The position numbers and the translations under genes are program-made. The notes beneath the pieces are model-generated. The model made no database searches. It was not told the DNA's origin and was given only the letters and a program-made list of their open reading frames with translations. Below are positions 27,960 through 54,834 of a stretch of DNA of 64,000 nucleotides, piece by piece (within the stretch, counting starts at the first letter, position 1; each line of letters opens with the position of its first letter). The stretch is from an uncultured Alphaproteobacteria bacterium (GTDB lineage: Bacteria; Pseudomonadota; Alphaproteobacteria; RF32; CAG-239). The stretch is from NCBI GenBank assembly GCA_934277435.1, contig CAKQUE010000001.1, positions 385,957-449,956 of the forward strand, given 5' to 3'.

Positions 27960-28937
27960 ATGAAATCAGCAGCTTATTCTTTATTTTTTAGCGGTTTGTT
28001 GTTGGCTGTTCCGGCAATGGCAAATTCGGATATGCAAAAAGATATAGAAGATTTGCGTGAAGATTTAATGGTGTTGCAGCGTCAAATTTATCGCGGTGTA
28101 GGTAATACAGGTGAAGTTTCAAAATCAACAACCGTTACTCAAAATCAAGAGGCGGCTGGAAATGTACAGGTTAAAATAGGTGAATATGATGAAACAATCC
28201 GCAAAGTTAACGGCCGTATGGATACATTGGAATATCAGGTAAAACAGCTGGAAAATAAGCTTGATAAAATAAACCGCGATATGGAAATCCGTTTTAAAAT
28301 ATTGGAAGGACGTCCGGTTCCGGCAAATTTGAGCGCGCCAACACCAACAATTCCAACTACATACGATGCTCCGGTGGCCTCTGGTGCGTCTAAGGCTGTA
28401 ACCGGAGATGGTATTCAGGGCGATGATTTAGCTCCGATTGCTGGTTCTAATGTGGCAGCTCCAAAGAATCTTCCTGCCGGCGGCGATGGTGCCCCGCAGC
28501 CGCTGATTACAGATGTTGCCGAGGCTAAACCGGCGGCAAATTCTCAATCTAAATCAGCAGATGAAATTTATGCCAACGGGATGGAAGCGCTGAACGGTGG
28601 ATTGTATGACGAAGCAGAGATGGCTTTTCAGCAGATATTAACACAATCGCCAAACGATAAGCTGGCTGGTAACGCTCAATATTGGTTGGGCGAAACCTAT
28701 TTAAAACGCGGAGATTATTCAAAGGCTATTGTGGCTTTTAAAAACGGTTATGAAAAATATAAAAACGGTAACAAGGCTCCGGATAGCTTGTTTAAGTTAG
28801 GGCTTACATTTAAGGCGCAAAAAGATAATCAAAAAGCTTGTATTGTATTATCAAGCTTTAAAGCTGAGTTTCCAAAAGCTAATGCAGATTTGGCTAAACG
28901 AGTGCAAGCAGAAGCGTCTAAACTCGGGTGCAAATAG
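27960..28937 (+). CDS. cpoB: Cell division coordinator CpoB (YbgF), TPR protein
   Basis: Signal peptide, N-terminal coiled coil, C-terminal TPR (YWLGETYLKRGDYSKAIVAFKNGYEKY). Position downstream of pal. Confidence 0.8.
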   Translation: MKSAAYSLFFSGLLLAVPAMANSDMQKDIEDLREDLMVLQRQIYRGVGNTGEVSKSTTVTQNQEAAGNVQVKIGEYDETIRKVNGRMDTLEYQVKQLENKLDKINRDMEIRFKILEGRPVPANLSAPTPTIPTTYDAPVASGASKAVTGDGIQGDDLAPIAGSNVAAPKNLPAGGDGAPQPLITDVAEAKPAANSQSKSADEIYANGMEALNGGLYDEAEMAFQQILTQSPNDKLAGNAQYWLGETYLKRGDYSKAIVAFKNGYEKYKNGNKAPDSLFKLGLTFKAQKDNQKACIVLSSFKAEFPKANADLAKRVQAEASKLGCK

Positions 28938-30001
28938 TGGAAGAACTGTTTGCTAAATATCAAATTAAAGATGAAGTCGTGGCAGTTGGTGTTTCCGGCG
29001 GGGCGGATTCCTTGGCGCTTGTTTTGCAAGCGGCTGAAGAATTAGCCGTGTTTGGGCGAAAAGTTGTGGCATTGACTGTGGATCATGGCTTGCGTCCTAC
29101 CTCACGTCTGGAAGCTGAATATGTGGCCGGATTAATGCAGAAATATGGTATTGAACACCATATTTTAACTTGGACGGGAAAAAAGCCAACAACCGGAATA
29201 GAAGAGGCGGCGCGGCAAGCCAGATATGCGCTTATTGCCGAGTGGTGCAGCCAAAATAATGTACATGTTTTGCTAACGGCTCATCATGCCAAAGACCAAG
29301 CCGAGACATTTTTGATGCGTCTGCAACGCGGCAGCGGTTTGGAAGGGTTGTGCGGTATCCGAGAATATAGCGTTCGCGATGGATTAGTTATTTTGCGTCC
29401 TTTGTTAGCTATAAATCCTGAAAATCTACGTGATTATCTGCGACAGCGTGCTATTGTGTGGGTGGAGGACGAATCCAACCGCGATACAACTTTTTTGCGC
29501 GGAAAAATACGCCAATATTTACCGGAACTGACAGAAAACATTGGTATAAATATTGAAAAAATCTGTAATGCCGTGCATAATTTGCAAAGTGCTGAAGATT
29601 ATATTGAACAGCAGCTGGATTTGTTGCTGGCGCATGATGTGATATGGGATTTTGGTACTGTTTGCCGTTTTAGATATATGGACTATTTGAGCTGGCATAA
29701 AGAAATGAAATTCAGAGTGCTGGCGCGTTTGTGTCGCCGCGAGTATATTCCCCGCGCCGAGAGAGTTTTGGCTTTGGTAAACGCTTTGAATACGATGCCT
29801 TTTACGGGGGCGACTCTGGGGGGGCGAGAGATTATTTTGGCGTATGACTGGGTTTGGGTTGTACCTGAAAGAATATCTAAAAGAGTGCAAAGCCGCAAAT
29901 TGTGGGCAGAATTTGTGCGGCAACATCCTTTGTATAAAAACATAAAGATGCCCCATAAAGCCAAGTTGGCGATATTACAAAAAGTCGGAGTAAAAAAATA
30001 A
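28928..30001 (+). CDS. tilS: tRNA(Ile)-lysidine synthetase
   Basis: PP-loop SGGADS. Position after pal-cpoB as in other alphaproteobacteria. GTG start overlapping the cpoB stop. Confidence 0.9.
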   Translation: MQIVEELFAKYQIKDEVVAVGVSGGADSLALVLQAAEELAVFGRKVVALTVDHGLRPTSRLEAEYVAGLMQKYGIEHHILTWTGKKPTTGIEEAARQARYALIAEWCSQNNVHVLLTAHHAKDQAETFLMRLQRGSGLEGLCGIREYSVRDGLVILRPLLAINPENLRDYLRQRAIVWVEDESNRDTTFLRGKIRQYLPELTENIGINIEKICNAVHNLQSAEDYIEQQLDLLLAHDVIWDFGTVCRFRYMDYLSWHKEMKFRVLARLCRREYIPRAERVLALVNALNTMPFTGATLGGREIILAYDWVWVVPERISKRVQSRKLWAEFVRQHPLYKNIKMPHKAKLAILQKVGVKK

Positions 30002-50317: not shown

Positions 50318-51045
50318 CAGATAAATGGGGTTATTATTTATTTGATGAAGTTGGCAGTACTAATGATGTTATAAAAGATTATTGTGGCGAATCCGGCAAA
50401 TATGTGGCGGTGGTTGCGGAATCTCAAACTTTGGGACGCGGCAGATTGGGGCGCAATTGGAAAAGTCCAAAAGGAAATTTATTTTTTTCTTTGGCGTTTG
50501 AGTATGAATTGCAACGGGCTGGAGAATTGGCGTTTGCGGCTTCGCTGAGTCTGTTGCAGACGGTTAAAAAAATTGCTCCGTTTGCCGATATAAAATTGAA
50601 ATGGCCGAATGATGTGTTGTTAAATAATGCAAAAATGAGCGGAATTTTGCTTGAAAAAGGTCCTGAAAAGTATATGATTATCGGTATAGGCGTTAATGTG
50701 GCCGCCAGTCCGGAAATTGATAACGCCGTTTATAAGATTACATCACTGGCCGATGCGGGGATAAAAATAGAAGCGCTAAAGCTGTTGCGCCTGTTTATAG
50801 AAAGTTTTTCGCAGAATTTGAGCTTACTGCAAACTAATGGTTTTGCGGTTCTGCGCGAGGAATGGCTCGAAAATGCCAAAAATTTGGGGAAAGAAATTAC
50901 TGTTCGCCAAAGTGGCAAAGAAGAAAAAGGTATTTTTGCCGGAATAGATGAAAATGCCGCGTTGTTGTTAAAAACGCCTGCCGGTACAAAACGAATATTG
51001 GCGGGAGATGTGTTTTTTGAAGAGATGAATAAAAAAGATGAGTGA
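50308..51045 (+). CDS. birA: Biotin--[acetyl-CoA-carboxylase] ligase (group I, no DNA-binding domain)
   Basis: GRGRLGRNW...G motif. The ATG at 50308 has a GGAAGG RBS. Overlaps the NuoN-like end. Confidence 0.85.
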   Translation: MAIADKWGYYLFDEVGSTNDVIKDYCGESGKYVAVVAESQTLGRGRLGRNWKSPKGNLFFSLAFEYELQRAGELAFAASLSLLQTVKKIAPFADIKLKWPNDVLLNNAKMSGILLEKGPEKYMIIGIGVNVAASPEIDNAVYKITSLADAGIKIEALKLLRLFIESFSQNLSLLQTNGFAVLREEWLENAKNLGKEITVRQSGKEEKGIFAGIDENAALLLKTPAGTKRILAGDVFFEEMNKKDE

Positions 51046-52702
51046 ATTTAAAAAAGAAGGAATTTATTTTTTGCCTTTGGGCGGAGCCGATGAAATCGGG
51101 ATGAATATGTATATGTATGCGGTTGACGGCAAGATAATTGTGGTTGATGCCGGTTACGGCTTTTTATTGGACGATTATCCAGGAATGGAGTTGGCTTATG
51201 CTTCGCCGGAATTTTTGGACGCATATAAAGACGATATCGAAGGTTTGTTTATTACGCACGGGCATGAAGACCATTTGGGGGCTATCGCACAAATTTGGCC
51301 GCATTTGCAGTGTCCGGTTTATGCAATGGATTTTACTTTGGGATTGATTAAATCTCGTTTGGCGGAATTTAAAATGGAAGATGTAGTTCCATTGGTTTCG
51401 GTAAATCAGCAAAGAACAGTAGAGTTGCCTAATTTTAGCGTTGAGTTTATCTCAATTGCGCATTCGGTGCCGCAGACCTGTGCTTTGGCTATCCGCACAA
51501 AATACGGCAACATATTGCATGCAACCGATTGGCGTTTTGATGATGAGGCGCTTTCTATGCTGCCAACAGATTTTGACGCTCTAAAAAAACTTGCGGATGA
51601 AGGCGTTTCGATGTTGGTTTGCGATTCAACCAATATTATGGTGGATAAAAAATCACCGTCAGAAGCAGAAGTGCGCAAAAGTTTGATGGAAATTATTCCG
51701 CAAATTGAAGGTGGTTTGATTGTAACTTGTTTTGCGTCTAATCTGATGCGTTTAGAAAGTTTGATTTTGGCGGCCGACAAAGCCGGAAGAACTCCGGTGC
51801 TGTTGGGGCGTACATTAATTAATAATATAAAAATAGCCAAAGAATGCGGCTATTTACAAGATTTGCCGCCTGTTCACACTATGGAGGAAGCAAAGGATAT
51901 TCCAGCGGATAAAGCGCTTTATATTTGTACCGGTTCACAGGCAAATTATCGTAGCGCGTTGAGTATTATTGCAAACGGCGAAAGCAAATATATAAAGCTG
52001 GATAATTCGGATACGATTATTTTCTCGTCTAAGATGATTCCGGGAAATGAAGATAAAATCGAACGTATGCAAGATAAATTGGTAGCGCAGGGAGCAACAG
52101 TAATTACTGATGAAACTGAGTTGGTTCATACTTCTGGACACGCTGGCCGCGAAGATTTGAAACGTATGTATGATTTATTGAAACCGGCTGTGGTGCTACC
52201 GGTACATGGAGATAAAAAGTTTATTCGCGAACATAAGCGTTTTGCCTTGAGCTGCGGTATTAAAGAAGTTTTTTCGGCGCGTAATGGCGATATGTGTTTG
52301 CTGCACAACAATCATATTGAACTTTTGGAACAAGTTTTTAGCGATATTATTGGTTGGGATAGAAACCGTCCGGTTTCGCTTGGTTCTCAACTGATTAAAA
52401 ACCGCCGCCGTATAGCATTTAATTGCAGTATGTTTATCAGTGCCGTAATTAAAGATAAAAAGTTGCTGGACTTGCAGATGTCGTCTATTGATATTTTGGA
52501 AGAAAATGATTGGGATAAATTGGCTGACGAAATTTTGGCAACAGTTAAACCGCTGATAGAGAAAAAATTGCTTGAATGTGAAAATCATACGCAAATAGAA
52601 GATTTTATCCGCGGGCAGATTCGCCGCCGCGTTTTTGCGGCAACCGAGATTAAACCGGTGACATTGTTGCATGTGGCATTTTTGGATAATGAATCAGAAT
52701 AA
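51038..52702 (+). CDS. rnj: Ribonuclease J
   Basis: Metallo-beta-lactamase motif HGHEDHLGA, beta-CASP region, C-terminal domain. 554 aa. Confidence 0.9.
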   Translation: MSEFKKEGIYFLPLGGADEIGMNMYMYAVDGKIIVVDAGYGFLLDDYPGMELAYASPEFLDAYKDDIEGLFITHGHEDHLGAIAQIWPHLQCPVYAMDFTLGLIKSRLAEFKMEDVVPLVSVNQQRTVELPNFSVEFISIAHSVPQTCALAIRTKYGNILHATDWRFDDEALSMLPTDFDALKKLADEGVSMLVCDSTNIMVDKKSPSEAEVRKSLMEIIPQIEGGLIVTCFASNLMRLESLILAADKAGRTPVLLGRTLINNIKIAKECGYLQDLPPVHTMEEAKDIPADKALYICTGSQANYRSALSIIANGESKYIKLDNSDTIIFSSKMIPGNEDKIERMQDKLVAQGATVITDETELVHTSGHAGREDLKRMYDLLKPAVVLPVHGDKKFIREHKRFALSCGIKEVFSARNGDMCLLHNNHIELLEQVFSDIIGWDRNRPVSLGSQLIKNRRRIAFNCSMFISAVIKDKKLLDLQMSSIDILEENDWDKLADEILATVKPLIEKKLLECENHTQIEDFIRGQIRRRVFAATEIKPVTLLHVAFLDNESE

Positions 52703-52776
52703 ATAACATAATATATCATATAAGAATGATGAAAGACTGTGATTTTAAATCATGGTCTTTTTTTTATACAAAAGAC

Positions 52777-52803
52777 TTGACAAACAACCGGGGGGGGTAA
52801 ACT
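52777..52803 (+). promoter_or_regulatory. Candidate promoter with G8 homopolymer in the spacer (TTGACA-15-TAAACT)
   Basis: TTGACA at 52777-52782, then aacaaccgggggggg, then TAAACT. The G8 tract is at 52790-52797. Downstream are a GGAGAA RBS and the ATG at 52836. Confidence 0.4.
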
Positions 52804-52835
52804 GGAGGCGTGAACACTTTATAGGAGAAGTAATT

Positions 52836-53510
52836 ATGATTACCAATGCTGATGCAGAAAAAAAATTTACCTCAAACAATGTTATTGAAGCTGAGCCGAC
52901 GGGTATTCGCCGTGTGATTATTCCAGCTTATGGATTTGCTGGTGCAACTCCTCAAAAAAGACAGGAATGGGGAGCAGACGGACCTTTTATGGAAGATGTT
53001 CAAGGATATAAATTTAATAATCCCAAAGATAATGCTGACCAAATATTAAAAAAGAACGACGGAGTTCTTATTTGCTATGATGCTCCAGGGCGAGTAGATA
53101 AAATTAATAAATATCTAGAAGAAAATCCTAAAACATTTAAAGATGTAGTTCATTTGAAAAAATTCATTTCATTTATGCAACAAGAAACTGGCGATGTGTG
53201 GGATACTGACGTTAATTTTGCGGCCGGCTTAAAAAATGCTCCGGCTAAAGAAGATATTAAACCAGGCAAGGTGTTTACCGGCATAAAAGCAAAAGAAGCG
53301 GTTACAGCTTTTAGGGTAAAAGAAGGTGAACAGTTTGAAGGTGCAGAAGGCACGCCGCAAACTGCAGGTAAAGGTGGTGCCTATGTTATCAAAGATAAAA
53401 GCGGTATAAGAATGATTCAAGCGGCAGAATTTGCTAAGGCTTATACTGTGACCAAGGAACCGCAAAATAATATTAATACGCGTGTAAATTCTACATTGGA
53501 AAATAACTAA
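52836..53510 (+). CDS. Hypothetical protein
   Basis: 225-aa ORF with a good RBS. No recognised family. Confidence 0.5.
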   Translation: MITNADAEKKFTSNNVIEAEPTGIRRVIIPAYGFAGATPQKRQEWGADGPFMEDVQGYKFNNPKDNADQILKKNDGVLICYDAPGRVDKINKYLEENPKTFKDVVHLKKFISFMQQETGDVWDTDVNFAAGLKNAPAKEDIKPGKVFTGIKAKEAVTAFRVKEGEQFEGAEGTPQTAGKGGAYVIKDKSGIRMIQAAEFAKAYTVTKEPQNNINTRVNSTLENN

Positions 53511-53567: not shown

Positions 53568-54761
53568 TTATTCAAACGAAAACGGCGAAACAAGATAACT
53601 ATTTTGAATTATGTTGTATAGCTCGTTGTATGTTTGCAAATATTGTTGGCGCAATTCAGATGGTTCTGGCGGCAAATTATTAATTTGCTGTGCGACTTTA
53701 TTCAAATTGCTGCGCGAATCGGCAATCAGTTTAACAAACTCGGCTAAGGCTGGTATTTCAGAAAAATCATCAACAAACTCTACAGAATATAGAAATTTTT
53801 GATGATAAACCAAAAAATCTTGACATTTATCCAACAGACAGTCGACATTCAAACGCTTAATATATACATTGGCGTAAAATTGCTTATCTGTGTGTGCATT
53901 TATAATGCACATTTCTGCAGGGTCAACATACGCAAACGTTTCTGTCGGCGTTTCAAAATCCTCGTCTTCTAGCGACATTTGTTTATTTGCTTGCCACATA
54001 TTAAAGATGGAGTGCATATATTCATGTACATTGGCGAGCAAACTGCTTTGGGGTAAAAAGCCGCGTTCAAGGTTCACTCTGTCGTCAAAATACGGCGAAT
54101 TATAGGCAAAAGCCAAACACGTGCGTTCATCTGTAGTCAACTTGGTTTCGTTAGTCTTGGAGGCTTGCAACGCCTGCAAAAAACCATTATAGTCAGCGAT
54201 ATTTATGTATGCTTTCATAATATCTCTGAAAGTGTAGCTATAGATGTCGGCCTTTAGTTTGTCGCCGTATAAACACTCCAGCGTCAATAACAGGTTGCGC
54301 TTTAATTTACTTTCTTTTTCATTTATAGATGCAAAAATAGATTGATAGCGCAAATCCATAGATTCCATCAAGGTTATAACGACTTCATCTTGTAAGTTTA
54401 GAGCCCAGCAATAGGCCGTAATAAGAGCGTCTGAGGATAGAGTTTGCTTAATATTAATTCGGCATATTTGGGAGATTGCTTTTACAAAATCGTACTGCCA
54501 AGGAATTGGAGTATAAAAACGAATCCTGTCGATGGATTTTTGGAATGATTCGTAACTACAATCCACCCATTCGGCCAATTTCCAAAGATTGTCCAAATCA
54601 TCAGTATTCTCGCCAAATTTGAAACAAATTGTTACGTCGTACGTCACCTCTTTCAAATCTGTCAAGAGCAACCCGTGCTGTTGCAATAACATTGTTAAAA
54701 AAATGTATTGCCACAGTTCGTCCTTTTGAAGTAAATGCTTCTTTAAACTGTCTTTGTCCAT
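53568..54761 (-). CDS. Hypothetical protein with an HEXXH motif
   Basis: About 397-aa ORF with HEYMH (zinc-metalloprotease-like motif) and nothing else recognisable. Likely start MDKDSL. Confidence 0.5.
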   Translation of the reverse strand: MDKDSLKKHLLQKDELWQYIFLTMLLQQHGLLLTDLKEVTYDVTICFKFGENTDDLDNLWKLAEWVDCSYESFQKSIDRIRFYTPIPWQYDFVKAISQICRINIKQTLSSDALITAYCWALNLQDEVVITLMESMDLRYQSIFASINEKESKLKRNLLLTLECLYGDKLKADIYSYTFRDIMKAYINIADYNGFLQALQASKTNETKLTTDERTCLAFAYNSPYFDDRVNLERGFLPQSSLLANVHEYMHSIFNMWQANKQMSLEDEDFETPTETFAYVDPAEMCIINAHTDKQFYANVYIKRLNVDCLLDKCQDFLVYHQKFLYSVEFVDDFSEIPALAEFVKLIADSRSNLNKVAQQINNLPPEPSELRQQYLQTYNELYNIIQNSYLVSPFSFE

Positions 54762-54834
54762 AATGATAGGAATAAAATAATGAAACAATAAAATAGAATT
54801 AACGATTTTATTGTTTCACAGTAAGTGTTTTTTG

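Follow-up and report, generated by a model that had tools for sequence, protein, structure and literature searches.

Organisation of the locus

The locus lies in a 64-kb stretch of DNA from an uncultured gut alphaproteobacterium, referred to here as the window. It comprises a gene for a conserved 224-aa protein preceded by a promoter-like sequence with a run of eight G (G8). The original prediction had described a G8 within a 15-nt spacer between TTGACA and TAAACT, and re-reading the sequence confirmed both hexamers, the spacer, the tract and all their coordinates. The features of the region are as follows.

51038-52702, + strand: ribonuclease J gene, 554 aa (Pfam RNase_J_b_CASP, 9.7e-34; also RMMBL and Lactamase_B)
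52731-52765, + strand: RNase J intrinsic terminator, made up of a 14-pair hairpin and a T8 tail at 52758-52765 (terminator scan and RNA fold)
52763-52776, + strand: A/T-rich block TTTATACAAAAGAC directly 5' of the -35 hexamer, seen on comparing the window with L049 and L038, which have another upstream gene; possibly an UP-like element
52777-52782, + strand: -35 hexamer TTGACA, a perfect consensus match
52783-52797, + strand: putative promoter spacer of 15 nt, AACAACCGGGGGGGG, consisting of AACAACC and G8
52790-52797, + strand: G8 homopolymer at the 3' end of the spacer; the variable element
52798-52803, + strand: -10 hexamer TAAACT, 33 nt 5' of the ATG at 52836
52804-52812, + strand: block GGAGGCGTG separating the -10 hexamer from the conserved leader, variable in an alignment of 22 unique 5' regions; presumed discriminator and transcription-start region
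52813-52835, + strand: leader AACACTTTATAGGAGAAGTAATT, conserved in the same alignment; contains the Shine-Dalgarno sequence AGGAG (52823-52827)
52836-53510, + strand: gene for the conserved 224-aa protein, the putatively controlled gene (80 homologues, conserved start, dN/dS)
53568-54788, - strand: convergent neighbour, 406 aa, without a Pfam, PHROG or PADLOC family

The RNase J gene is outside the putative switch and forms the 5' boundary of the region. Its terminator hairpin is the sole strong structure in the region by RNA folding, and the G tract is unpaired. TTGACA begins 12 bases past the T-run of this terminator. Since the terminator insulates the 224-aa gene from RNase J, the 224-aa gene needs its own promoter. 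Downstream of TAAACT, a stretch of ~20 nt leads to the AGGAG and then to the start codon at 52836-52838. A known RNA element or leader structure was rejected, as the leader and 5' region matched no Rfam family and RNA folding returned only the upstream terminator. The convergent 406-aa neighbour had a single match, a sub-threshold one to the NCBIfam model WD_0964 (E = 0.017).

Evidence for the putative promoter

A generic promoter scan allows spacers of 16-18 nt only and for this reason missed the 15-nt TTGACA/TAAACT site. The evidence for the site is comparative. At 13 more distant orthologous loci from GTDB genomes (L005, L010-12, L015-16, L021-24, L028, L030 and others), a -35-like hexamer is followed after exactly 17 nt by TAnnnT in the same place, and many of these 13 promoters carry TG two bases 5' of the -10. 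Among 61 contigs of close relatives, the -35 TTGACA is invariant in 59, the other two being P0005-lineage contigs with TTAACA. The -10 reads TAAACT, TAAAAT or TAGAAT depending on the lineage. These relatives vary in the 9 nt that follow the -10 and share a conserved leader that includes the Shine-Dalgarno sequence. Conserved hexamers, a variable block after the -10 and a conserved leader make up the usual pattern of a promoter.

The genomic context of the gene differs between lineages. RNase J and the 406-aa hypothetical gene flank the gene and its promoter block in the window lineage, and a 283-aa hypothetical gene and recR/ybaB/dnaX flank them in the P0007 and P0009 lineages (L038-L057). In this different neighbourhood, the P0007/P0009 sequences resemble the window from TTTATACAAAA onwards, a point just 5' of the -35; the promoter block travels with the gene. 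Between-lineage conservation starts at the A/T-rich block 52763-52776 even where the upstream gene is a different one. From these sequence comparisons we infer that TTGACA and TAAACT form the promoter actually used. A repeat tract situated between a recognisable -35 and -10 upstream of a gene is what characterises phase-variable promoters of the porA/opc/hif type, and this arrangement is found here.

Start codon and position of the tract

In a 32-sequence alignment, the N-termini of the homologues align at 52836 as M-I-(T/N/D/S), apart from two sequences with unrelated longer N-termini and one that is truncated. Because the N-termini are conserved there, ATG 52836 is the true start. Longer gene calls (P0002, P0003, P0005 and P0093) begin at the TTG of the -35 or at the position matching 52752. 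They are confined to sequences whose tract length happens to leave the reading frame open, and the extension shows no conservation at the protein level. The original prediction had allowed that an in-frame start at 52752 would turn the tract into codons (PGG); with the M-I-(T/N/D/S) start conserved at 52836, this option was rejected. Phase variation by frameshifting in an intragenic homopolymer was also rejected, as the tract is outside the translated frame. Being 5' of the conserved start codon, the tract can act on transcription only.

The G8 run within the window

The G8 is the longest run of G or C in the window, whose G+C content is 40%. A first-order Markov model predicts 0.35 G/C runs of at least 8 in 64 kb, and the run on its own is not significant. 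Runs of G or C of at least 6 are under-represented in the window (4 observed against 7.8 expected from dinucleotide frequencies). Perfect TTGACA hexamers with TAnnnT 13-20 nt downstream occur as 9 pairs on both strands of the window, and the only G8 of the window falls within one of them. It is the position of the G8, rather than its existence, that is unusual. There is no other G/C tract of 8 or more in the 64-kb window, and no sign there of a genome-wide set of switches.

Two further observations concern homopolymers in the window. A/T runs of 6-10 are abundant, with ~135-137 for each base. The second-longest G/C run is a G7 at 29818-29824, which lies inside a 357-aa ORF (28928-30001) and could be a frameshift-prone site.

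Tract length among related strains

We compared the tract in the 61 contigs of close relatives, which were obtained by exact-protein look-ups, one GTDB scan and one pattern scan of JGI metagenomes. The JGI scan returned 36 loci, of which 3 were relevant and the others were unrelated promoters that matched by chance. The comparison data are metagenome assemblies (ENA, Logan), and the polymorphism described here is between samples. Uninterrupted tracts ranged from G6 to G9, giving spacers of 14 nt (9 contigs), 15 nt (11 contigs) and 16 nt (6 contigs). The uninterrupted alleles are listed by lineage.

Window lineage, CC followed by G8: window, L001, L002, L111; spacer 15 nt
Window lineage, CC followed by G7: L003, L112; spacer 14 nt
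Window lineage, T followed by G7: L109, L110, L113, L114; spacer 14 nt
P0001 lineage, T followed by G8: L031-L033; spacer 15 nt
P0001 lineage, T followed by G9: L004; spacer 16 nt
P0003 lineage, G9 with the -10 TAAAAT: L034; spacer 16 nt
P0007 lineage, CTC followed by G6, G7 or G8: 3, 3 and 4 samples; spacers 14, 15 and 16 nt, respectively
P0009 lineage, G8: L041; spacer 15 nt

A C+G9 allele in the window lineage is also indicated by the extended gene call P0093. L001 and L002, which come from the same assembly, both have G8. Contigs of the window and P0001 lineages combine an identical protein with different tract lengths. In ten samples of the P0007 lineage, also encoding an identical protein, tract length was the only difference between positions -112 and +840 relative to the ATG. 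Two or three lengths were present on each of two downstream haplotypes of this lineage, showing that the length change recurred.

The remaining 35 contigs have an interrupted tract or no tract. Of their spacers, 24 measure 16 nt and 11 measure 15 nt, and none is 14 nt. The 15-nt alleles of this group are GGGGAAGG, GGGGAGGG, GGGAAGGG and GGGGGAGG; those at 16 nt are TGGGAGGGGG, TAGAGGGAGG, TAGAGTGAGG, TAGAGGGAAT, TAGAGGAAGG, TGGTGGAGGA, AATAATCGCAAAAAGG and AACATTTTTGGAAGGG. No length variation was observed within any lineage with an interrupted or absent tract. In the subset of contigs scored for it, 8/18 uninterrupted tracts had a length that was off-modal for their lineage, compared to 0/30 interrupted ones (Fisher p = 1.2e-4). 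The T8 located ~25 nt upstream served as an internal homopolymer control and was T8 in 27/29 related contigs. Across 15 of these contigs, the G tract takes three lengths. None of the close-relative contigs reaches the 17 nt of the distant orthologues.

The tract is thus polymorphic in length among close strains with constant flanks, as is characteristic of the porA/opc/hif type. The comparison among strains that had been proposed to check the switch reading gave G6-G9 in pure tracts, with the interrupted tracts and the T8 stable. Because length change is confined to uninterrupted tracts, it supports the prediction of a slippage-prone element.

Two side observations were made in the course of this comparison. 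In the P0009 lineage (L038-L047, L092), the 8-nt tract is of constant length and carries G/A substitutions at positions 4-6, with five alleles in 11 contigs. Among the ten contigs with an identical P0009 protein, 3 of the 12 variable sites in ~1740 nt fall in the 8-nt tract (Fisher p = 1.4e-5). Such changes may mark a substitution hotspot, or they may 'lock' a tract that was slippery. The second observation is a separate, independent G8 at ~2970-3003 of L011, an orthologue with 61% amino-acid identity from a mouse-gut MAG (CAJTMA010000006.1). That G8 is at the Shine-Dalgarno position (AAATGGGGGGGGAAGTATCATG); by a rough estimate, ~0.02 such runs are expected in the ~3.8 kb of orthologue upstream sequence inspected.

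The 224-aa protein

All 80 homologues of the 224-aa protein come from uncultured gut or rumen Alphaproteobacteria. An AlphaFold2 model of the protein had a pLDDT of 90 and a pTM of 0.79, and a Foldseek search with this model returned no match at an E of 0.001 or better in PDB or BFVD. Searches of Pfam, NCBIfam, PHROGs and PADLOC gave sub-threshold noise only, and a sequence profile search of PDB gave nothing. A profile search of 1.8 billion representatives identified 65 remote relatives. In some long relatives the core (residues ~55-212) forms the C-terminal end or part, and the other domains are Metallophos, adenosine deaminase or RamC_N+VRP3. These fusion partners are a lead rather than an assignment and point to no single function. 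No signal peptide or surface-protein feature was found in the 224-aa product, which looks cytoplasmic. The original prediction had drawn a parallel to fimbrial and surface-protein genes, and this did not hold for a product without a Pfam, NCBIfam, PHROG or PADLOC family or a fold match.

The gene is under strong purifying selection, including in lineages whose dominant allele is 14 nt. Close lineages gave dN/dS values of 0.04-0.11 against the window, and distant lineages 0.12-0.19. Even where synonymous sites are saturated between lineages, the promoter block and the tract are retained. Between the window and L049 (dS 1.3), the coding sequence is 82% identical and third codon positions 59%, compared to 88% for the 5' region. 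The 5' region is more similar than neutral sites would have stayed, which argues that the G-rich spacer is maintained.

A candidate promoter-spacer switch

We propose, with a probability of roughly 0.65, that the G8 is an expression switch of the porA type, in which a poly-G tract in the promoter spacer controls the 224-aa gene. The G8 would be a hypermutable simple-sequence repeat within the spacer of a sigma-70-type promoter. Slipped-strand mispairing at replication would add or remove a G and so shift the distance between TTGACA and TAAACT in steps of 1 nt, altering the contact of RNA polymerase with the two hexamers. Transcription would be up with a 16-nt spacer, down with the 15 nt of the window and nearly off with 14 nt, and the change would be heritable and reversible, as for the porA poly-G. 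Tracts of G6-G9 are at the short end of those that switch at a high rate in Neisseria and Campylobacter. Within a population, switching would be fast enough for phase variation, and adaptive. This shortness counts against a switch, as do the lack of surface features in the 224-aa product, unlike most classical phase-variable genes, the absence of a further G/C tract of 8 or more from the window, and the fact that the close relatives stop short of 17 nt.

The assignment of expression states to spacer lengths draws on the general behaviour of sigma-70 spacers and on the relatives with fixed lengths. Native sigma-70 spacers of E. coli are 15-21 bp long; in synthetic libraries, spacers of 16-17 bp are the strongest and those of 12-14 bp are suboptimal (PMC8695583). 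By this rule, and from the relatives fixed at 16 or 15 nt, we infer that spacer length sets expression in this organism as well. The non-slippery relatives are mostly at 16 nt, so the window allele is one G short of the usual state. The gain of one or two G had been predicted to bring the spacer to its optimal length, and this fits, as G9 gives 16 nt, the main fixed length of the non-slippery relatives. Expression is probably reduced with the 15-nt allele of the window and probably almost off with the 14-nt alleles. The non-slippery P0009-type lineage (11 contigs) is fixed at 15 nt, so the 15 nt of the window is evidently compatible with function and not necessarily 'off'.

Alternative explanations of the length variation

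The first alternative is that slippage at the tract is neutral or mildly harmful, making it a mutational hotspot rather than a selected switch, that G-to-A interruptions remove it and that any effects on expression are incidental. Interrupted tracts of fixed length in the P0009-type, P0005, P0084 and P0088 lineages are in line with this, as are the commonest variants in the species cluster of the window, P0083 (77 contigs) and P0084 (53 contigs), neither of which has an uninterrupted tract. One G8 in 64 kb is also within chance, and the 224-aa product is not that of a typical contingency gene. However, uninterrupted tracts occur in at least four lineages separated by a dS of 0.4-1.3, over which eight neutral sites would diverge, and the window otherwise has fewer G/C runs than expected. 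That the gene is under purifying selection despite dominant 14-nt alleles fits reversible silencing better than decay. On balance, we regard an unselected hotspot as unlikely.

A second explanation assigns the G- or purine-rich 3' half of the spacer a role in binding or structure, as a regulator operator or as a rigid G/C block affecting promoter melting or the response to supercoiling, and treats length change as a tolerated side effect. Consistent with such a role, interrupted alleles are still rich in purines and G at the same place (AGAGGGAGG, GGGAGGGGG and GGGGAAGG), and between distant lineages the 5' region as a whole has diverged less than silent sites. Spacer sequence alone can also shift promoter strength ~10-fold (PMC8695583). 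In contrast, four versions of the block exist among four P0088 contigs with an identical protein, and in the P0009 lineage three of its 8 nt are variable; so many substitutions between very close strains are unlike a sequence-specific operator. Furthermore, the P0083 and P0004 lineages have A/T-rich sequence in place of the block, and no inverted or direct repeat typical of operators was found in the promoter region. Collectively, these observations make a binding or structural element improbable as the explanation.

It is highly improbable that the homopolymer has a constant true length and that sequencing or assembly errors account for the differences. All data are contig-level metagenome assemblies (ENA, Logan), and poly-G is a known problem on two-colour Illumina instruments. 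However, G7-G9 is short enough for reliable Illumina consensus calls, G6, G7 and G8 each recur in at least three independent samples of the P0007 lineage, T+G7 recurs in four assemblies from different pipelines, the T8 ~25 nt upstream stays constant across these contigs, and the 35 interrupted spacers keep a single length within each lineage.

Comparison with known phase-variable systems

Repeat-mediated phase variation is well documented in the pathogens Neisseria, Haemophilus, Campylobacter and Helicobacter. Work on gut commensals has focused on invertible promoters and methylation. To our knowledge, repeat-mediated phase variation has not been described in uncultured gut Alphaproteobacteria, and our literature search found no report of it in this group.

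The closest parallel to the proposed switch is porA of Neisseria meningitidis, whose poly-G tract is ~G9-G11; the tract here is shorter, at G6-G9, and its spacers are 14-16 nt and never 17. In the porA work of van der Ende et al. 1995, as summarised in section 3.2 of PMC3899988, a poly-G tract likewise lies between the -35 and -10 of a sigma-70-type promoter, the gain or loss of a single G alters the spacer, and strains differ in tract length. The same section describes the porA transcript level as tracking the number of G between the -10 and -35. The two loci also differ in setting: porA belongs to a mucosal pathogen and encodes an outer-membrane porin; the present gene belongs to an uncultured alphaproteobacterium that is a gut commensal, and its product looks cytoplasmic and has an unknown fold.

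In hifA/hifB of Haemophilus influenzae, the distance from -35 to -10 similarly depends on the repeat number (van Ham et al. 1993, as cited in PMC3899988 and PMC11868660), and section 3.2 of PMC3899988 gives transcription of both genes as tracking the number of TA repeats. In contrast to the mononucleotide tract and single gene of the present locus, hifA/hifB has a dinucleotide repeat that changes in 2-nt steps within overlapping divergent promoters of two genes. Poly-G/C tracts of Campylobacter and Helicobacter (PMC8437040, PMC2823697) resemble the G8 in being slippage-prone poly-G of ~8-10 nt, and they act as heritable, reversible switches, as proposed here; they are mostly intragenic and act by frameshift, whereas the tract here is upstream of the start codon.

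The mechanism itself is textbook, and the gain is one of scope, not of principle. The locus offers a ready test case for finding such switches in metagenomes, because public assemblies alone show the shifts between 14, 15 and 16 nt with the interrupted-tract and T8 controls constant. The gene belongs to an orphan family that is strongly conserved and has a novel predicted fold, and its expression is probably costly in some conditions. A stronger version of the proposed switch, which we put forward only tentatively, is that the 224-aa protein is the product of a true contingency gene, for example in interaction with phage or host, and that the spacer is under diversifying selection. Tracts would be built, switched between 14 and 16 nt and then 'locked', by G-to-A substitutions or by promoter exchange through recombination, and the G8 of L011 would follow the same pattern. 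If true, this would be the first simple-sequence contingency locus in this commensal group and would give a handle on the function of the orphan family.

Promoter history

The histories of the promoter and of the gene disagree when positions 52760-52835 of the window are compared to L095, L103 and L049. In the P0083 lineage (L095), identity to the window is 95% for the coding sequence and only 68% for the 5' region. This suggests that promoter alleles were exchanged or replaced. A different kind of change was found in L094 at ~330-360, in a P0083-type promoter: a 13-nt tandem duplication, in which AAAAAGGTAAAATG is present twice, doubles the -10 hexamer. The duplication is present in one of nine otherwise identical contigs.
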